Positions 6,694 to 17,087 of a DNA stretch of 27,430 nt are shown here, piece after piece (within the stretch, counting starts at the first letter, position 1; each line of letters begins with the position of its first letter). The DNA comes from Clostridia bacterium (lineage in GTDB: Bacteria > Bacillota > Clostridia > Christensenellales > Aristaeellaceae). The position numbers and the translations under genes were made by a program. The notes beneath the pieces were generated by a model. It did no database searches, was not told the DNA's origin, and saw only the letters and a program-made list of their open reading frames with translations. The stretch is taken from positions 1-27,430 of the forward strand of contig JAZUDA010000045.1 of NCBI GenBank assembly GCA_045639455.1. The letters are read 5' to 3'.

Positions 6694-7257
6694 ATGGAAA
6701 AAGGAAACCTTCCCCGGGCGTGGCATATTTTCAAAACATTCCTGAAATTCGGTTGTTTCACCTTCGGCGGCGGATGGAGCATAATCGCGCAGATTCAGAA
6801 AGAGTATGTAGAAAAACTGCACTGGATTACCGATGAGGAGCTGCTGGACTATACCTCGGTTGGGCGTTCCGTACCCGGGCTGATGGTCGGCAACGCCAGC
6901 CTGCTGTTCGGCTATCATGCAGCCGGTTTCCCTGGGGCGTTCGCCGCGCTGTTCGGCGTTACGATTCCGCCGTTTCTGATTATGATTGGGGTCACCTTTC
7001 TGTACGGGCTGGTAAAGGACAATCCGTATGTGGCAAAAGCCATGATGGGCGTCCGCGCCGCGGTGGTGCCCATCATCCTTAGTGCGCTGGTTAAGCTGTT
7101 CAAGTCCGGCATGAAGAATTGGTTCTGCTACTTGATTGCCATCGGTGCCATGGTGCTGTGTCTGTTCTCCGGCATCAGCAATGTGGTGATTGTGGTGATG
7201 GGTGCCGCCGCCGGTCTGGCATACATGGAGGTGAAGTCTCGTCATGGTTTATCTTGA
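6694..7257 (+). CDS. chrA: Short-chain chromate-ion (CHR) transporter, subunit 1
   Basis: FLKFGCFTFGGG, VEKLHWITDEE, GRSVPG, FGYHAAGFPGA. Overlaps the next gene by 14 bp. Confidence 0.9.
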   Translation: MEKGNLPRAWHIFKTFLKFGCFTFGGGWSIIAQIQKEYVEKLHWITDEELLDYTSVGRSVPGLMVGNASLLFGYHAAGFPGAFAALFGVTIPPFLIMIGVTFLYGLVKDNPYVAKAMMGVRAAVVPIILSALVKLFKSGMKNWFCYLIAIGAMVLCLFSGISNVVIVVMGAAAGLAYMEVKSRHGLS

Positions 7258-7783
7258 GTTGTTTCTATCCTTCCTGATGATCGGCTTCACCAGCTTCGGC
7301 GGAATGTCCATGATTCCTCTGATTAACGATGAAATGCTCTCCCACGGCTGGATGACCGCCCAGGAGGTGGCCGATATCGTGGCCATCGCGGAAATGACAC
7401 CCGGCCCGTTGGGGCTGAACTGCGCCACCTTTGCCGGTTCCCGTACCGCGGGCGTCCTGGGCGCTTTGGTTGCTTCCATCGGTGTGCTGGTGCCCACACT
7501 GACGGTATGCCTGGTGGCGGCGATTTTCCTGGAGAAATTCAAAGAAAGCCGGCTGATGAATCACGCGTTATTCGGCATCCGGCCCGTGTGCATCGGCATG
7601 ATTGCCGCCGTCATTGTCCAGCAGTGCATGACCAATTACGCCGGTGTCTGGCTGGGCTTTGTTTCCTGGCAGGCGCTGATTATCGGCGCGATATCGCTGT
7701 TTCTCCTCTTCAAGCTCAAGTGGAACGTACCCAAGACCATTTTGGTCGCGGCCGTTCTCGGGCTGATACTGGGATCAATCTGA
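7244..7783 (+). CDS. chrA: Short-chain chromate-ion (CHR) transporter, subunit 2
   Basis: FLMIGFTSFGG, HGWMTAQEVADIVAIAEMTPGPLGLNCATFAG, FGIRPVCIGMI. Confidence 0.9.
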   Translation: MVYLELFLSFLMIGFTSFGGMSMIPLINDEMLSHGWMTAQEVADIVAIAEMTPGPLGLNCATFAGSRTAGVLGALVASIGVLVPTLTVCLVAAIFLEKFKESRLMNHALFGIRPVCIGMIAAVIVQQCMTNYAGVWLGFVSWQALIIGAISLFLLFKLKWNVPKTILVAAVLGLILGSI

Positions 7784-7838: not shown

Positions 7839-8765
7839 TTATTCATTTTTCCGGAAATCCACCAGGTATTCCTCGTAACGCCTGCACCAGTAATCGAAGG
7901 ATACGTCATCCGCGGTGACCGTGACCCGGATGACATCCGCGTTCACTCGCTCCGCCTCCGTCTCCATACCGAACCAGTCAAAAACATCGTTCAGAGCGTT
8001 CTGCTTTGCGAGGAAGGTATGCTTCCTGGCGGCACCGTTGTACATGAAGGGATGGACATTCACATATTTTTGCAGATCGATGCCGTTTTCGCAACCCTCG
8101 ATTTCCGTCAGTTCCTTGGCAGGCTCCTCCGTCAGCTGAATATCCATAATCCGTTCAACACGGAAGTGGGAAATGTTGTCGTACTTGTCCACATTGCCCA
8201 GGAGGTAATACCGGCCGTTGGTGGTGAGGATATCGTAGGGATTCACCAGATATTCCCGTGGCGTGCCGTCCTCCCGGCAGCGGTAGTGAAGCTTTTTGTC
8301 GATATCATAGTTGCCGTAGTAGAAAAGCACCTTTTTCTCCCCGGCAATTGCCTCATGCAGCACATCCAGCGAGAAAAGAAACTGCGGATTGGCCGGACGC
8401 AGCTGACTGTTGTCCTGATTCGCAGCATACCAGCTGCCGCCCAGCAGAGAGACCTTTCGAATCATTTCGTCCCGCTGGGCCGCCGTAATGCCGGGTGCGG
8501 TGCGCAGGATATCCACCAGCAGGTTCAGTTCCGCCGGGCAGAAATCATGCTCGTAATACCAGCCCTTGTCAAAGCAGACCGGATACCCGGCCTCGACCAG
8601 ATCGTCCAGATTTTTCCGGATGCTTTTCCGGACGTAGGTCTTGCCCGTTTCCTTCTCCACAAGGTCGATAATATCCTGCTGGCGGACCCGATGATCCTCG
8701 TCCGTATATTTCTTGAGGATTTCCAAAATGGCATATCCTTCCTGCTTATGCGTCCCGGCTGCCAT
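7839..8765 (-). CDS. WYL-domain transcriptional regulator (N-terminal wHTH)
   Basis: Start reassigned to MAAGTHK at 8765 (RBS AGGCGGGTG). AILEILKKYTDEDH...QDIIDLVE wHTH region; WYL core YLVNPYDILTTNGRYYLLGNVDKYDNISHFRVERIMDI; C-terminal FDWFG. Confidence 0.88.
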   Translation of the reverse strand: MAAGTHKQEGYAILEILKKYTDEDHRVRQQDIIDLVEKETGKTYVRKSIRKNLDDLVEAGYPVCFDKGWYYEHDFCPAELNLLVDILRTAPGITAAQRDEMIRKVSLLGGSWYAANQDNSQLRPANPQFLFSLDVLHEAIAGEKKVLFYYGNYDIDKKLHYRCREDGTPREYLVNPYDILTTNGRYYLLGNVDKYDNISHFRVERIMDIQLTEEPAKELTEIEGCENGIDLQKYVNVHPFMYNGAARKHTFLAKQNALNDVFDWFGMETEAERVNADVIRVTVTADDVSFDYWCRRYEEYLVDFRKNE

Positions 8766-8797
8766 GACGCTCACCCGCCTTGTTATATGATGTATTA

Positions 8798-8826
8798 AGG
8801 ATACCACACTTCCCGGCGACTCGCAA
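8798..8826 (-). promoter_or_regulatory. sigmaA promoter for the WYL gene
   Basis: Minus strand TTGCGA, 17 bp spacer, TGg-TATCCT. Confidence 0.5.
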
Positions 8827-8901
8827 CAGCGAAGTGGCCCAGCCGCGGGTTGATGTAACCGTTTGGGGACATTTCTATCTTTGTGCAGCCTTTTGAAAAA
8901 C

Positions 8902-8937
8902 AAAAAAAGCTCCGACAAGAATCTGTCGGAGCTTTTT
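8902..8937 (-). terminator. Rho-independent terminator after the CsoR-family gene
   Basis: AAAAAAAGCTCCGACA-agaatc-TGTCGGAGCTTTTT. Confidence 0.85.
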
Positions 8938-10614: not shown

Positions 10615-10675
10615 AGGGGTTCTCCCTTCAGGGCGTATGCCCGGCCTTCTTCATACCTGTCCGGGACGCATTCAT

Positions 10676-10704
10676 GTTGTACCATTTCCCCGCGGGTTTG
10701 TCAA
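10676..10704 (-). promoter_or_regulatory. Probable sigmaA promoter for GNAT-DMT-CsoR
   Basis: Minus strand TTGACA (overlaps the hydrolase TGA stop), 17 bp spacer, TGg-TACAAC. The -10 lacks the final T. Confidence 0.5.
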
Positions 10705-11324
10705 TTCTTCCGTTGTCCGTTCTTTTCTTCCGTCAGCCACCCGTCCAGGAACGCCATCTGCTCCGGCGTATGGAACCAGTGCTCCCCGCCCGGCATGACC
10801 CGCAGCTCCGCGCCTGTTTGCTCAGCGAAGGCGCGGACGGTATCGTAACTCTGCAGGTGATCCTTTTCGCCGTACAGGACGCAGGTCGGCGTAAGCCAGC
10901 GGTTGGGCGTATTTCTTACGCGGCACAGCACATTCCAGGACAGCTTTTCCCCGAAAGCCGTTTCAACGGTACCTTTTTCCCGCAGTTCCTGCTCCGTTAC
11001 CCCTGCCCAGCCCATCATGTCCAGAATCAGCCGCTCCATATTGACGATGGGCGATATAAAATACGCCCGCTCAACGGGCGCGTCGGAAAGCGACATCATG
11101 GCATACCAGGCGCCAATGCTGTTTGCCACCATGGTTACGGAATCATACGCCTGAAAAATTGGCGCAAAAAGGGCCGGGAATGCTTCCGCCGTTTCCAAGG
11201 GCGCGGCAGGCTCATATTCAAGCCCGATTACATCCGCGTCCGGAAACAGCGGCCGGTAGTGTTCTGCCTCACCGGCATTCCCGCCCTTTCCGTGGATATA
11301 GACAATTGCTTGTTTTCTGTTCAT
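10701..11324 (-). CDS. Alpha/beta-fold hydrolase (esterase-like)
   Basis: IVYIHGKGG oxyanion region, nucleophile motif ANSIG, YGEKD, GGEHWF catalytic His. Start placed at MNRKQ (11324); the ORF-track extension to 11372 is not needed. Confidence 0.85.
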   Translation of the reverse strand: MNRKQAIVYIHGKGGNAGEAEHYRPLFPDADVIGLEYEPAAPLETAEAFPALFAPIFQAYDSVTMVANSIGAWYAMMSLSDAPVERAYFISPIVNMERLILDMMGWAGVTEQELREKGTVETAFGEKLSWNVLCRVRNTPNRWLTPTCVLYGEKDHLQSYDTVRAFAEQTGAELRVMPGGEHWFHTPEQMAFLDGWLTEEKNGQRKN

Positions 11325-11378
11325 TTGTTCCGCGTCTTCCTGTTCTTTCTTCGCGGTATTTCCGTCCGGCAAAAAATC

Positions 11379-11588
11379 TTACTTGTCGGATTTTTCCTCG
11401 CCGGGAAACTTGTTTTCACCAATCGTGCCCGCCGCGATTTCAAGCTCGCCCGCCGCGTTGACAAAGCCCAGGTCGTCATCGGACAGCTCCGCGGCGTAAC
11501 GGTTTTCCGTTTCCGCAATCAGCTTCGCCAGGGAGGTATTTTTTTCAAACTTCTGATAATCAAACATCGCGTTCAGTTTCTTTTCCAT
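11379..11588 (-). CDS. 69-aa peptide with a double-glycine-type leader motif (ELSDDDLGFVNAAG); putative PCAT substrate or anti-sigma
   Basis: RBS AAGAAGG 7 nt before ATG 11588. E-L-S-D-D-D-L-x-x-V-x-A-A-G matches the C39 peptidase leader pattern. Directly downstream of an ECF sigma factor and a C39-containing ABC exporter. Confidence 0.8.
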   Translation of the reverse strand: MEKKLNAMFDYQKFEKNTSLAKLIAETENRYAAELSDDDLGFVNAAGELEIAAGTIGENKFPGEEKSDK

Positions 11589-11625
11589 GAAAATGCCTTC
11601 TTTCTTCAATGTGGTTTCACTGATT

Positions 11626-11652
11626 TATACGATACGAAAGGCAAAATGGTTA
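11626..11652 (-). promoter_or_regulatory. Putative ECF-sigma promoter for the peptide gene
   Basis: Minus strand TAAC-catttTgcctttcgtat(17 nt)-CGTATA, matching the AAC-N16/17-CGT pattern of Bacillota ECF sigmas. It overlaps the sigma TAA stop. Confidence 0.55.
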
Positions 11653-12138
11653 ATGCTTTTCAAAATAATCTTTCAGTTTTTTCAACGCGTTGTTCTGCAG
11701 CACCTTTACATAGGCATAGGAGATGCCCATATGCTCGGCGATTTCCTTCAAGGTTTTGCCGGAGTAGTACCGCAGAATGATAATATCCCGTTCCCGCTCA
11801 TCCAGCTTTTTGAGGCCTGATGCCAGCGTCTCCAGCGTCTCCGCGTTGCACACTTCCTCCTCAACATCGGTTCCGTCATCCCGTGTTTCCGGAATTTCCC
11901 CGAATACCTTGCGGGTGCGGAAATAGTCAATCAGTCGGTTGCGGGTAATGGTATAAATCCAGGTGGAAAGGGAGGCCTTCGTTTCGTCAAAGCTGTCGAT
12001 TTTTTCGTACACCTTGACGAATACATCCGCGGCCAGGTCCTCCGCCATCGTGGCGTTATTGATTTTCGAGCGGATATATCCGCACACCTTGCCGTAATAA
12101 TCGCTGTAGATTTTTTCCTTTTGCTCGTCGGTCATCAT
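11650..12138 (-). CDS. ECF-subfamily sigma-70 factor
   Basis: 162 aa. Region 2: AEDLAADVFVKVY, SLSTWIYTITRNRLIDYFR. Region 4: LDERERDIIILRYYSGKTLKEIAEHMGIS. RBS AAGGAGG. Confidence 0.93.
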   Translation of the reverse strand: MMTDEQKEKIYSDYYGKVCGYIRSKINNATMAEDLAADVFVKVYEKIDSFDETKASLSTWIYTITRNRLIDYFRTRKVFGEIPETRDDGTDVEEEVCNAETLETLASGLKKLDERERDIIILRYYSGKTLKEIAEHMGISYAYVKVLQNNALKKLKDYFEKH

Positions 12139-12162: not shown

Positions 12163-14358
12163 TTATGCTTCTTCCACGTCCACCCTCTGACGTTCCACCA
12201 GCTTGGCGAAGGCGCCGTTAAGGGCAATCAATTCTTCATAAGTACCGTCCTCCAGAATCTTTCCCCCGTCCAGGTAGATAATGCGATCGGCATGCTGAAT
12301 GGTGGAAAGGCGGTGGGCAATCACAATTCGCGTACACTTGAGCGCGTCAATCGCCCGGGTGATTTTCCGCTGGGTAATGTTATCCAGCGCGCTGGTGGCC
12401 TCATCAAATATCAGAATCTTCGGGCTGGGGGCAACAGCCCTGGCAATCATCAGCCGCTGCTTCTGCCCGCCGGAAATGCCGCCCTGGCCCTCGCCGATGA
12501 CCGTATGCATTCCCATCGGCATGGCACGGATATCATCCGCGACGGACGCGATTTCCGCCGCCTCCCATGCCCGCTGAAGCCCCATCTGCGGCGCGGTCAG
12601 CACGATGTTGGAATAGATGTCGCCCAGGAACAGCTTGCCGTCCTGCATCACCACGCCGATTTTTCTGCGGAGGGATTCCGGGTCGATTTTGTTGATATCC
12701 TTCTGATCGTAGGCGATTAGGCCCTTCTGCGGCGTTTCAAAGCCCAACAGCAACCGGACCAGCGTACTCTTGCCGCATCCGGTGGGGCCCACAATGGCCA
12801 GATACTCGCCCGGCTTGACCCGCAGGGAAAGGTCGTCAATCACATTGGGCATAGCCTCGTCATAGCGGAAGGAAACGTGGGTCATTTCGATTCCGCCCTG
12901 AAGCTCCGTAATATTTTCCTTCCCGTCATGCACCTCCGGCTCCGCCTCCATAATCGGCTTTGCCATTTCCAGTATCGGGCGGATATTGGCCACCGTCATC
13001 GCGATGGACACAACGGACAGAAAGGCGGACGATACCATACCGTACGCGGAATTGAACGCGTAATAATCCGCCACGCCCACACCGCTTGACAGGGCTGTAG
13101 CATAGAGGATCATTGTACCACCAAGGGAAAGCGCCATGCTGAGGGTACCGCTCAGCTTCAGGAACGCGGGCGGGTTGTAATTCAGCTGCGCCTCACGGGC
13201 ATACTGCCTTGCCCAGCGGGAGAACATCCGTTTTTCCGCGCCCGCCAGCTTGATTTTCTGTATGCCGGTGATGGTGGAATAGGTCAGGCCGCTGGTTTGG
13301 GACGCGACGTCCATCCGTTCCCGGGAAATCTTTGTCTGCAGCAGTGTCGTTGCCAGAGAAAGCGCCAGGGTGGAGGCGGTAATCAGCAAGGACGGCACCA
13401 CAAGGGAGGGTGCAAAGGCAAAAATCTGCCCGATATAAATCAGCGAGAACAGCGATGTCAGCCCCGTCATGCCGATTGTGCTGAACAGGGTGGAGCACAG
13501 CGACTGCACATAGGAGGCTCGCTGCGACAGCTCGCCCGCGGAAAAGCTGCGGAAAAAGGACGGCGGCAGACTCATCATCCGGTTCATAACCGCGGCCTGA
13601 ACGGCGATGTTCTGCTTGATGCCGATTCGGGAATTGATCAGCCCCCGGAAGGCATTGAAGCACAGGCTGCTGACGGAAAAGGCCACCATAAAGACAGCGA
13701 GAGAAATCAGCACCTGCAGGTTGCCGGAATCCAGCACATCGCTGAACAGCCAGCGGGTAAAGAGCGGGGACAGCAGGCCCAGTGCGGAAGACAGCGCCAT
13801 CAGCGTCAGGTACAGGACGATGTCCGACACGCTCAGCTGCTTCACCATGAATTTCAGCAGGTCTGCCACCTTCAGCGGCTTTTGCGGAAGCGGCTCATAA
13901 AAGCAGACTGCCTCCCGGTCCAGCAGTTTCTCGGTTTTCCGGTTCATGCGGCGCCTCTCGCCGGTTTTGAAATTAATCAGCCGGTATCCGGAAAGGTTGT
14001 CCGGAATCAGCGCGACCGCGCTGCCGTCCTCCTTCAAGGTGCCAAGCATGGCACCTACCGCGCAGCGGTACCAGCCTTTTTCCAGCGTGACGGTACGGCT
14101 TTTGATGCCGAAGGGGCGCATGCGGTATTCGATTTGCTCGTCCACCGTCTTGATCCGGTCCGGAAGCTCTTCCGACTTCGGCTTGCAATGGTAAAATTTC
14201 AATATTTCGTCGATGGCAGAGCCGGCGATTTCGTTCTGGCTCAGCGCGTCCCGCAGACGGTTCCCCATCACGGCGTTCGCAATGGAATCTATGGCGTCCG
14301 CAAAATCGGCGTTGTCGGATTCCGCACGGGTACGCAGCTGCTCGTCAAACCAACTCAT
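12163..14358 (-). CDS. NHLP-type export ABC transporter, permease/ATPase subunit with a degenerate C39-like N-terminus
   Basis: N-terminal ~150 aa lacks the QxxxxECG motif; six-TM domain; Walker A GPTGCGKST; signature ISGGQKQR; Walker B ILIFDEATSALD; IAHRLST. Confidence 0.9.
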   Translation of the reverse strand: MSWFDEQLRTRAESDNADFADAIDSIANAVMGNRLRDALSQNEIAGSAIDEILKFYHCKPKSEELPDRIKTVDEQIEYRMRPFGIKSRTVTLEKGWYRCAVGAMLGTLKEDGSAVALIPDNLSGYRLINFKTGERRRMNRKTEKLLDREAVCFYEPLPQKPLKVADLLKFMVKQLSVSDIVLYLTLMALSSALGLLSPLFTRWLFSDVLDSGNLQVLISLAVFMVAFSVSSLCFNAFRGLINSRIGIKQNIAVQAAVMNRMMSLPPSFFRSFSAGELSQRASYVQSLCSTLFSTIGMTGLTSLFSLIYIGQIFAFAPSLVVPSLLITASTLALSLATTLLQTKISRERMDVASQTSGLTYSTITGIQKIKLAGAEKRMFSRWARQYAREAQLNYNPPAFLKLSGTLSMALSLGGTMILYATALSSGVGVADYYAFNSAYGMVSSAFLSVVSIAMTVANIRPILEMAKPIMEAEPEVHDGKENITELQGGIEMTHVSFRYDEAMPNVIDDLSLRVKPGEYLAIVGPTGCGKSTLVRLLLGFETPQKGLIAYDQKDINKIDPESLRRKIGVVMQDGKLFLGDIYSNIVLTAPQMGLQRAWEAAEIASVADDIRAMPMGMHTVIGEGQGGISGGQKQRLMIARAVAPSPKILIFDEATSALDNITQRKITRAIDALKCTRIVIAHRLSTIQHADRIIYLDGGKILEDGTYEELIALNGAFAKLVERQRVDVEEA

Positions 14359-14372
14359 TCGCAGACACCTCC

Positions 14373-16544
14373 TTACTCCGCACTGACCAGTTCGCGGTAC
14401 ATTTCGCTGTTTTCCATCAGCTCCCGATGGGTTCCGCGGTCGATAATCTCGCCCTTGTCCATCACGATGATTTCATCGCAGGAACGGATGGTGGAAAGCC
14501 GGTGGGCGATAACGATGCAGGCAATGCCGCGGTCGCGGATGGCCTTCACTACGCCGTATTCCGTTTTTGCGTCCAGCGCGCTGGTGGCCTCATCCAAAAT
14601 AATCACCGTCGGGTCCTGCGCCAGGGCGCGGGCAATCTCGATTCGCTGCCGCTGGCCGCCGGAAAAGTCCTTGCCGCCCTCCGTCAGCTTATGCCGATAA
14701 CCTTTCGGCCGCTGCATGATATCCTCATGAATCTGCGCGTCCCGGGCCGCCAGGATCATTTCGAAATCCTCGATGCTGTCATCCCACATCTTGATATTAT
14801 CGGCAATCGTATCCTCAAACAGAATGATATCCTGATCCACCACCGCCACAGACCCGCGGAATACGTTTTTCGGGATCTGATTCATTTTTTTGCCGTCAAA
14901 CAAGATTTCGCCGCTCCACGGCTGATACAGCCCGGCAATCAGCTTCGCCATGGTGGATTTGCCGCAACCGGAGCCGCCTACGATGGCCACGCTTTTTCCG
15001 GGTTCGAGGCACATATTGAAATCCTTGATCAGCGGCTCCGCCAGGGGCGAATAGCCAAAGACCACGTGATTCAGTTCGATTTTTCCGGTCAGCTTGCCAT
15101 AGTCGTCCGTATCCTCGTTTTCATTAAAAACGATATCCTCCGGGTATTCCATCACGTCTTCTACCCGCTCCATCTCGGTACGCATTTCCTGCAGCGTCTG
15201 GCCGGCGGAAATCATCGTCTGGGCAGGCGACATAAAGGAGGCAAGGAAACCTTGAGACGCCATAATCATACCGATGGAGAACTCGCCCCGCATGGTCAGC
15301 CACACGCCCAGGAACAGCACCGCGTTGTTGGCAAGCATGGAGACAAACTGGGGAATCATGCCCAGATACTCATTGAGTTTCAGGAATTTCACCTGCTGCG
15401 TATTTACGCCCGCCTGATAGCCGGACCATTTTTTGAAATAGCCGTTTTCAGCACCTGACGCCTTGATGGTTTCGATCATTTCAATACCGGCTACCGTGGC
15501 GGAGGACAGCTTCGCGCTGTCACGCATGGAAACGCGGGTCACGTTAATCCGCTTCTGGGAAATATAGTTTGACACCGCAGCGTTGATAAACAAAGAGGCA
15601 AGCCCGATTACCGTCAGGAAAACGCTGTAGCGCAGCATCACCACCAGATAAAAGACCATCATCACCGAGTTCAGCAGAAGCGGCGCGAAGGTGCCGATCA
15701 GGGTGTTGGCGATAGATGCGTTCGCGCCCTGCCGCCCCTGAATATCCCCTGCCATACGCTGGGAATAGAATTTCATCGGCAGACGGAGGATTTTCCACAT
15801 GTAGGTGGCGTTGCCCACCGCTGCCATCTTGCCGTTAATGCGCAGCGAATAAACCGCCTGCAGAGCGGACATGATAATATCGATCAGGTTGAACGCGCCC
15901 AGCAAAATCAAGAAGGGCGTTATCCACTCCGGATCCGTCCCTGTCAGCAGATGGTCCAGAAAAACCCGTGAAAATCCGGGCTGGACAAACCCCATCAGCG
16001 CCGCGATGACACCTGTCAGCACCGTGAAAGCGATGGCGGTGCCCGTTCCCTTCAGACGTTTTGCCGCGAATTCCTTCATGCTCTTCGGCTTGCCGGAGGG
16101 GACAAACGCCTCCGTAGGCTCAAACTGCAGGCAGATTCCCGTAAAAGCCTCGTCAAACATTTCCATAGAAACGCTGTAGGAGCCCTTCGCCGGGTCATTC
16201 AGCCAGGCTTTCCCGCCTTTGAAGCCGTTGAGCACCACAAAGTGGTTGAAATTCCAGTGAATAATGCAGGGGAAGCTGCCGTGTTCCTTCAGCGCGTCCG
16301 GCTCATACCGGTAGCCCTTCGCCTCCAGGCCGTAGAAGCGGGCAGCCTTGAGGATGTTGCGGGCATTGGAGCCGTCTCTGGACACGCCGCAGTCCTCACG
16401 GACCTGCTCCAGCGGAATCCACTTACGATAATAGGCCAGGATCATGCAAAGGCACGCTGCGCCGCATTCCAGCGCCTCCAGCTGCATCACAACCGGAACA
16501 TTGGCTGTGCCCTTCGTCACCGGCTTTTTGATTTTCTCCGCCAT
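14373..16544 (-). CDS. NHLP-type export ABC transporter with an intact C39 peptidase (PCAT)
   Basis: VMQLEALECGAACL (Gln, catalytic Cys), HWNFNHFVV (His), NDPA (Asp); Walker A GGSGCGKST; FSGGQRQR; IILDEATSALD. Confidence 0.93.
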   Translation of the reverse strand: MAEKIKKPVTKGTANVPVVMQLEALECGAACLCMILAYYRKWIPLEQVREDCGVSRDGSNARNILKAARFYGLEAKGYRYEPDALKEHGSFPCIIHWNFNHFVVLNGFKGGKAWLNDPAKGSYSVSMEMFDEAFTGICLQFEPTEAFVPSGKPKSMKEFAAKRLKGTGTAIAFTVLTGVIAALMGFVQPGFSRVFLDHLLTGTDPEWITPFLILLGAFNLIDIIMSALQAVYSLRINGKMAAVGNATYMWKILRLPMKFYSQRMAGDIQGRQGANASIANTLIGTFAPLLLNSVMMVFYLVVMLRYSVFLTVIGLASLFINAAVSNYISQKRINVTRVSMRDSAKLSSATVAGIEMIETIKASGAENGYFKKWSGYQAGVNTQQVKFLKLNEYLGMIPQFVSMLANNAVLFLGVWLTMRGEFSIGMIMASQGFLASFMSPAQTMISAGQTLQEMRTEMERVEDVMEYPEDIVFNENEDTDDYGKLTGKIELNHVVFGYSPLAEPLIKDFNMCLEPGKSVAIVGGSGCGKSTMAKLIAGLYQPWSGEILFDGKKMNQIPKNVFRGSVAVVDQDIILFEDTIADNIKMWDDSIEDFEMILAARDAQIHEDIMQRPKGYRHKLTEGGKDFSGGQRQRIEIARALAQDPTVIILDEATSALDAKTEYGVVKAIRDRGIACIVIAHRLSTIRSCDEIIVMDKGEIIDRGTHRELMENSEMYRELVSAE

Positions 16545-16554
16545 ATCAGCAACC

Positions 16555-16977
16555 TCAATTCAAAATAAAGGATAAGGGCTTGTAGCTTCGGATAATGACC
16601 TTTCCTTCATAGAAGCCGTCGGGCAGAGCGGAATCCTCCGACAGGACACAGGCGTAGCCCATATCCTCTTTCGCGCCGATTTGCGTGATGACCGCCTCTT
16701 CCGTTTCCCCGAACCGGACGATTTGCCCCTCCCGGATGGAGGAAACATCTTCCGGCGCGATGAAGCAGACCGTGCCACCACCCTCAATGCGGACGGTGGA
16801 CGGCACGGTGCTGTCCACCTGCCCGAAGATGCCCCATACGCAGGCGCCCGCCAGCAAAACAATCACGCTGACCAGCAGCAGCCACACGCCCGGGTTGGAC
16901 ACTCGGATAAAATCATCCAGGTTTTCGGGAGACTTTACTTTATCAAGGCTTTTCTTTCGGAATATTTGTTCACTCAT
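16555..16977 (-). CDS. Miniature NHLP-system secretion (HlyD/MFP-like) accessory protein
   Basis: N-terminus IFRKKSLDKVKSPENLDDFIRVSNPGVWLLL...WGIFG and C-terminus GKVIIRSYKPLSFILN both recall NHLP secretion proteins, but the protein is only 140 aa. RBS AAGGAG. Confidence 0.78.
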   Translation of the reverse strand: MSEQIFRKKSLDKVKSPENLDDFIRVSNPGVWLLLVSVIVLLAGACVWGIFGQVDSTVPSTVRIEGGGTVCFIAPEDVSSIREGQIVRFGETEEAVITQIGAKEDMGYACVLSEDSALPDGFYEGKVIIRSYKPLSFILN

Positions 16978-17058: not shown

Positions 17059-17087
17059 ATTATATATGAATTTTCCCGTCAATTCAA
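17059..17087 (-). promoter_or_regulatory. sigmaA promoter for the exporter-sigma operon
   Basis: Minus strand TTGAAT, 17 bp spacer, TATAAT, just downstream of a terminator. Confidence 0.7.

Follow-up and report, generated by a model that had tools for sequence, protein, structure and literature searches.

The segment at 11653-11618 on the minus strand of the window, which lies at the junction between the genes for an ECF-type sigma factor and a short partner peptide, is probably an ECF (group 4) promoter, and from its sequence, conservation and position we infer that it is read by the sigma factor encoded directly beside it (12138-11650). By the window we mean the whole 27,430-nt stretch of DNA analysed here, i.e. 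positions 1-27,430 of contig JAZUDA010000045.1 of a Clostridia bacterium (GCA_045639455.1), a bin of 1.8 Mb that is 75% complete. The site has the layout of an ECF promoter. That is, it consists of two blocks at fixed spacing, a short distance upstream of a gene, its -10 (TCGTATAAA) has the CGT core of ECF promoters (CGTA or CGTC), and it adjoins a sigma gene with which it co-varies. The family consensus does not have the AAC core of ECF -35 elements, and the promoter itself is of an ordinary ECF type with an unusual GCC core in the -35.

The sigma-peptide module and the motif in the window

The sigma gene is preceded on the same strand by three genes (12163-16977; Table 1) that, judged by their family matches, encode an NHLP-type peptide exporter, and is followed by the partner peptide gene and an alpha/beta hydrolase gene. 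For the hydrolase, ATG 11325, which has AGGAAG 11 nt upstream, is a more probable start than TTG 11372, and a hydrolase homologue was found beside the partner peptide in none of the 80 related loci described below. Downstream of the module lie a chromate-transporter-family gene pair and a WYL-domain regulator gene (6694-7783 (+), 7839-8918 (-)), which are unrelated to it. A sigma-70-like promoter in the operon leader is the likely origin of the exporter and sigma transcripts. A scan for terminators found none between the sigma and peptide genes, so that the peptide gene would receive read-through as well as sigma-dependent transcription. Furthermore, no RNA element was returned by Rfam for the sigma-peptide gap or the leader at E-values up to 1, no anti-sigma family of Pfam or NCBIfam was matched in the operon or flanking genes, and no histidine kinase or response regulator is encoded in the operon or in the ten flanking genes (about 8 kb).

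Table 1. Features of the sigma-peptide module in the window, and further matches to the promoter motif in the same genome
Feature	Position	Strand	Evidence or remarks
Sigma-70-like promoter TTGAAT-17-TATAAT, operon leader	17059-17087	-	sigma-70 scan
Mini membrane-fusion protein gene, 140 aa	16977-16555	-	N-terminal match to TIGR03794
C39-peptidase ABC exporter gene	16544-14373	-	TIGR03796, 920 bits
Second ABC subunit gene	14358-12163	-	TIGR03797, 692 bits
ECF-type sigma factor gene, 162 aa, regions 2 and 4 only	12138-11650	-	TIGR02937, 114.6 bits
-35 block TTAACCA	11653-11647	-	5.1 bits; contains the sigma stop codon TAA (11652-11650)
T-tract TTTT directly after the -35 block	11646-11643	-	53-71% T at spacer positions 1-4 among orthologous promoters
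-10 block TCGTATAAA, CGTA-type ECF -10	11632-11624	-	19.0 bits
Conserved (A/G)TG, predicted transcription start region	11620-11618	-	10-12 nt after CGT
Ribosome-binding site AAGAAGG	11602-11596	-	7 nt before ATG 11588
Partner peptide gene, 69 aa	11588-11379	-	ORF; no Pfam or NCBIfam family
Alpha/beta hydrolase gene	11372-10701	-	weak Pfam matches below curated cut-offs
Motif before five other GG-leader peptide genes, same genome	C21:7090, C21:2074, C265:7514, C335:2081, C227:3263	+, +, -, +, -	GTAGCCA-N14-TCGTATA, 16-31 bits
Motif before signal-peptide or lipoprotein-like protein genes, same genome	C258:1611, C227:1093, C22:1886, C195:11561, C237:1890, C68:3873, C84:223		16-28 bits

On the minus strand the 61 nt separating the sigma gene from the peptide gene carry the motif in the form TTAACCA-ttttgcctttcgta-TCGTATAAATCAGTG, in which 14 bases separate the -35 block TTAACCA from the -10 block TCGTATAAA. 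A preliminary description of this DNA had read the same region as GCAT-TAAC-N17-CGTATA and had taken its TAA for the sigma stop, which is correct: the sequence is GCAT TAAC CATTTTGCCTTTCGTAT CGTATA, and the sigma ORF of 162 aa ends with the TAA at 11652-11650. Its expectation that a start near 11620 would leave an untranslated region of about 30 nt with a ribosome-binding site agrees equally well with our result: transcription is predicted to start at around 11620-11618, at the conserved (A/G)TG whose last two positions are T in 73% and G in 80% of the aligned instances, and the leader would then measure about 31 nt, including AAGAAGG, up to ATG 11588.

Within the window, the AAC-N17-CGT pattern occurs 12 times against 10.6 expected, which is chance level, and CC-N16-CGTATA occurs once against 0.4 expected. 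The significance of the motif therefore rests on the orthologues. A position weight matrix derived from 55 distinct instances in orthologues, with the window excluded, gave the window site 24.1 bits; this was the only match of at least 8 bits on either strand of the 27.4 kb. The matrix instances were chosen with a pattern forcing CGTAT and a C-rich -35, so that the corresponding columns are inflated, while the flanking columns, and the k-mer test given below, were unforced. No second match appeared in the operon leader of the window, where the motif had already been said to be missing.

These scores bear on the possibility that the site is a chance resemblance or a functionless remnant, the peptide being transcribed by read-through only. 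The chance-level count of AAC-N17-CGT in the window would suit such a reading, and read-through is likely because no terminator separates the two genes. Against it, the two blocks are conserved in related loci in which spacers and leaders have diverged completely, the window site reaches its score with no input of its own, and shuffled genomes gave no match of at least 18 bits. We regard this explanation as strongly disfavoured and extremely unlikely.

The AAC in the -35 block of the window is there because the sigma gene ends in TAA where its relatives have TAG. The block therefore lacks the conserved G (AACC instead of AGCC) and its score is halved (5.1 bits for TTAACCA vs 10.1 bits for GTAGCCA), which suggests that this copy may be weak; judged by its -35, the window promoter may be weaker than the other copies in its own genome.

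The assembled contigs of four public RNA runs were compared with the region. In one metatranscriptome, an 870-nt contig with 98% identity covers 10675-11545, spanning the hydrolase gene and the greater part of the peptide gene, and depth is zero over 11562-11931, which includes most of the sigma gene. The contig is weakly consistent with a start between the sigma and peptide genes, as it derives from a 98%-identical strain, may reflect DNA carry-over, and stops 73 nt before reaching the predicted start; none of the assembled contigs extends as far as that start. Its extension over both genes suggests that the peptide and hydrolase genes are possibly co-transcribed.

Conservation and placement of the motif

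A scan of one genome per species yielded 80 related loci, from Oscillospiraceae, Lachnospiraceae, Acutalibacteraceae, Butyrivibrio and other Clostridia, which provided 85 upstream regions of peptide genes. The family motif is [G/T]TAGCCA or CTGCCA, followed after 14-15 nt by TCGTATAAAnnnnTG; when the 110 nt preceding the peptide starts are aligned, the -10 takes the form (T/G/C)CGTATAAA and is followed by four bases and then by (A/G)TG. A permissive pattern, xx(A/T)GCCx-N14/15-xCGTAT, was present in 59 of the 85 upstream regions and in 3.5% of 3200 random windows of 160 nt drawn from the same loci. Counting k-mers without any pattern gave the same picture, CGTATA being the top 6-mer, found in 61% of the upstream regions vs 2.8% of the background (22-fold); the related genomes behind all these figures are not independent samples. 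Of the 59 instances, 48 have a spacer of 14 nt between the blocks and 11 have one of 15 nt, and the distance from CGT to the start codon has a median of 42 nt among the orthologous instances. In the core of the family -35, (A/T)GCC(A), the G is conserved at 78% and the two C at 89% and 97%, and the conserved bases include the counterpart of the C in AAC.

It had been proposed that the site belongs to the AAC/CGT promoters of the SigM/W/X type. The CGT part of this assignment stands, the family -10 being of the CGTA type, and the AAC part does not, being peculiar to the window where the family has (A/T)GCC(A). Likewise, the orthologous sigma-peptide gaps did retain a motif, at a spacing of 14-15 nt and in 25 of 29 gaps, in which the AAC core was not kept.

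The alignment also allows the motif to be compared with a housekeeping sigma-A promoter, in which TAGCCA or TTAACC would be a degenerate -35 and TATAAA the -10. Counted against TTGACA-17-TATAAT, TAGCCA-N17-TATAAA has 9 of 12 matches at ideal spacing, and TTAACC-N18-TATAAA in the window likewise reaches 9 of 12. The conservation, however, does not fall on the positions expected for sigma-A. At position -7, 92% of the instances have A and 3% have T, TTG of the -35 is not kept, and the nearly invariant features are the CG preceding TATAAA and a C, not an A, at position 4 of the -35 hexamer. In addition, a sigma-70 scan reported nothing at the site, and the motif is multi-copy only in genomes bearing the module (see below), which would not be expected of a generic promoter. 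The earlier statement that no correctly spaced sigmaA -35 occurs here was essentially right, given the empty scan and the missing -7 T of the TTAACC-N18-TATAAA match. The sigma-A reading is very unlikely, and was rejected on the conservation pattern (A at -7, and CC instead of TTG in the -35).

In most of the 80 loci a sigma homologue adjoins the peptide gene, in either gene order, and the three exporter genes are usually alongside. Where the sigma gene comes first, the motif is found between the two genes in 25 of 29 loci, no more than 84 nt after the sigma stop codon and in most cases starting 0-11 nt past it. In 9 of these 29 loci, the window included, the stop codon itself forms positions 2-4 of the -35 block, which makes the stop-codon promoter a trait common to the closest relatives of the window. 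Where the peptide gene comes first, the motif lies upstream of the gene pair, as in the loci of Butyrivibrio sp. Su6 and AE2015 (L055, L067; ATTGCCG-N14-TCGTATATA), and was never found after the sigma gene (0 of 33 loci). The placement in the two gene orders indicates that the motif follows the peptide gene and not the 3′ end of the sigma gene.

Some loci depart from these arrangements. In three of them (L007:6685, L010:461, L011:5485) the stop-codon promoter is kept and is directly followed by the gene for a membrane protein or for some other double-glycine-leader (GG-leader) peptide; the gene of the partner peptide lies 300-1200 nt further on, with its own copy of the motif in two of the three (not L011). 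Four others (L046, L059, L073, L082) have two copies of the partner peptide gene, flanking or preceding the sigma gene, with tails that differ.

According to the preliminary description, the sigma factor would induce its downstream peptide and not itself. The first half agrees with the 59 of 85 peptide upstream regions that carry the motif, with the qualification that there are other targets (see below). As for the second, auto-regulation at the operon leader was considered and rejected, because none of 35 exporter-operon leaders carries the motif (best score 6.5 bits); in relatives with the peptide gene first, on the other hand, the motif precedes both genes and the sigma gene would there be auto-regulated. 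The window also departs from a classical auto-regulated ECF sigma/anti-sigma operon, as the sigma gene has no copy of the motif ahead of it and no recognisable anti-sigma domain is encoded next to it.

Further genes preceded by the motif

Scanning the genome of the window with the matrix, to which none of its genes had contributed, gave 12 matches of at least 18 bits, as against 0 in three shuffled versions. Among the 14 top distinct sites in this genome, that of the window included, 13 precede genes for exported products, namely the partner peptide, five other GG-leader peptides and about seven signal-peptide proteins (Table 1). Other GG-leader peptide genes had indeed been suggested as a place to look for the motif. 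The five peptides are unrelated in sequence to the window peptide and are likely cargo of the window exporter. The signal-peptide matches suggest that the regulon includes Sec-exported proteins, which are perhaps immunity or accessory factors.

A comparable picture emerged elsewhere. In the 80 related loci, additional matches are mostly found before GG-leader peptide genes, including some whose products have a long Nif11-like leader; three motif-bearing cases in which such a leader ends in GG are L019:13358, L015:633 and L072:6081. These cases suggest that the sigma factor controls both short- and long-leader substrates of the NHLP-type exporter. Two further genomes of the family (G112 and G005) contain 19 strict matches, located upstream of one partner peptide gene, of about 11 genes for other GG-leader peptides and of a set of paralogous secreted-protein genes. 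The paralogous secreted proteins of G112 (L088, L092, L093, L097) have near-identical signal peptides, with the strict motif about 60 nt upstream. Spacers and leaders show no similarity among the regulon sites, which argues for selection on the two blocks and against mere recent copying.

The strict pattern TWGCC-N16-CGTATAWA was then counted in 151 genomes of the family. It was found 36 times in the 26 genomes encoding the peptide (1.38 per genome) and 13 times in the 125 genomes without it (0.10 per genome), while a reversed control gave 47 matches in all 151 genomes (0.31 per genome). All seven genomes with at least two strict matches encode the peptide; these belong to five genera, so that the counts are not fully independent. 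Moreover, the AGCC and TGCC classes of the -35 cluster on the tree of the adjacent sigma factors, to a degree that none of 500 shuffles equalled, and the TGCC clade also has G/C-CGT and 15-nt spacer variants. Such clustering would be expected if sigma factor and promoter had co-evolved, with shared descent contributing to it.

Sequences from Lachnospiraceae, Oscillospiraceae and Acutalibacteraceae are intermingled in the sigma tree (loci L007-L086), which suggests horizontal movement of the module. Single copies occur in bins labelled Bacteroidales and Spirochaetales (L018; protein P0057), where transfer or binning error may be the cause.

The same data bear on whether the site, although real, could be read by some other alternative sigma factor or bound by a DNA-binding regulator instead of being served by the adjacent sigma. 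The genome, 75% complete, does contain at least four other ECF-like sigma genes from which such a factor could be drawn. On the other side, it is the adjacent sigma whose gene neighbours the peptide gene with the motif, in two gene orders and in the majority of the 80 loci, it is its phylogeny that the -35 variant tracks, and the copy number of the motif tracks the presence of the module; in addition, two blocks at fixed spacing about 42 nt before a start codon are the layout of a promoter and not of an operator. Reading by another factor is accordingly rated as unlikely, and recognition by the adjacent sigma factor as the probable explanation.

Under recognition by the adjacent sigma factor, the housekeeping-type promoter in the leader would transcribe the exporter and sigma genes, and the sigma factor would then activate the internal promoter overlapping the sigma stop codon, leading to expression of the peptide gene. 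It would also activate the dispersed promoters that share this motif and precede the genes of GG-leader peptides and signal-peptide proteins, and the GG-leader products would be substrates of the co-encoded C39 ABC exporter. The regulon of exported peptides and the partner peptide family are apparently undescribed: no description of the sigma/peptide/promoter system was found in full-text literature searches, and the recent bacteriocin-mining papers examined make no mention of a sigma factor in this context. The motif thus offers a sequence handle on a regulon widespread in gut and rumen Clostridia, and could be used to find short peptide genes missed by gene callers and bacteriocin miners. 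This suggests, too, that expressing the sigma factor might be a switch for silent peptide arsenals.

The partner peptide and comparison with known systems

The partner peptide is the only conserved partner of the sigma factor that is left unexplained. It matches no family in Pfam or NCBIfam, and in the ESM Atlas it matched only unnamed clusters, with a weak resemblance to the leaders of lantibiotics and ComC. Close homologues number at least 58, and a profile search of 1.8 billion representatives gave 1238 clusters at 50% identity. Residues 1-47, the last three of which are AAG, are strongly conserved, and the tail is acidic and hypervariable. In an AF2 model, whose mean pLDDT of 66 is insufficient for searching by fold, helices span residues 2-14, 18-31 and 37-42 and the tail is disordered. 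The leader is about 30 residues longer than the cargo leaders of the same regulon. A fusion of the peptide to a membrane anti-sigma was looked for and dismissed, the best 150 profile matches being all 57-150 aa in length and hence too short.

The long leader fits a regulatory role, either as an anti-sigma or as an exporter-coupled checkpoint, which would produce the negative feedback suggested in the preliminary description. Tentatively, the peptide might be the missing regulator and not a cargo, with its N-terminal two-helix part binding the sigma factor and its GG leader directing it to cleavage by C39; this is possible rather than probable. Alternatively, the hypervariable tail, which also fits a strain-specific signal, would be a strain-specific pheromone acting without a two-component sensor. 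The conserved partner peptide is thus a candidate for a new kind of control of an ECF sigma factor without a recognisable anti-sigma.

The closest parallel for the promoter is the sigma-W (ECF01) promoter of B. subtilis, TGAAAC-N16-CGTA(TA), with the related SigM/X/V promoters; a CGTA-type -10 is associated with sigma-W, and a T-tract next to the -35 is a described feature of ECF promoters (PMC5758882). Like the sigma-W system, that of the window has two blocks, a CGTA-type -10, a T-tract after the -35, about 16-17 nt from the last C of the -35 core to CGT, and a sigma factor with regions 2 and 4 only. Unlike it, the -35 core is (A/T)GCC(A) and not AAC/TGAAAC, no membrane anti-sigma gene is adjacent, and the regulon consists of exported peptides and not of envelope stress functions; the sigma factor reached the cut-off of no NCBIfam equivalog model, scoring 57.9 bits with that for SigW (TIGR02948; cut-off 243).

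In linking a GG-leader peptide, a C39 ABC exporter and a dedicated sigma factor, the module resembles the streptococcal ComC/ComAB/ComX and BlpC/BlpAB systems, and bacteriocin-like peptides are among the outputs in both. It differs from them in that no kinase or response regulator is encoded within about 8 kb, in that the sigma factor is a canonical ECF and not ComX-like, and in that the 47-aa leader has an extra conserved two-helix N-terminal part. The promoter motif of the window family also differs from the cin-box. The clostridial TcdR/UviA family is similar in that a dedicated alternative sigma factor is encoded beside genes for a secreted antagonistic product. Its members, however, belong to another sigma group and recognize another promoter consensus, and their targets, large toxins or the bacteriocin BCN5, are unlike the GG-leader peptide families served by a dedicated ABC exporter here. 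The control of clostridial bacteriocin or toxin genes by sigma factors of this family has been reviewed (PMC10467148).

Finally, the regulator reading of the peptide would have a functional analogue in FlgM and sigma-28. By this analogy, the partner peptide would likewise be a small, partly disordered protein that is encoded with a sigma factor, handled by an exporter and expressed from a sigma-driven gene. A difference is that C39 would cleave the leader and export the C-terminal part, while the conserved N-terminal part, whose binding to sigma is hypothetical, would stay in the cell. If this regulator reading is true, sigma activity and the synthesis of exported peptides would be coupled to exporter capacity, i.e. 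a checkpoint of the FlgM/sigma-28 kind would operate on a bacteriocin exporter.
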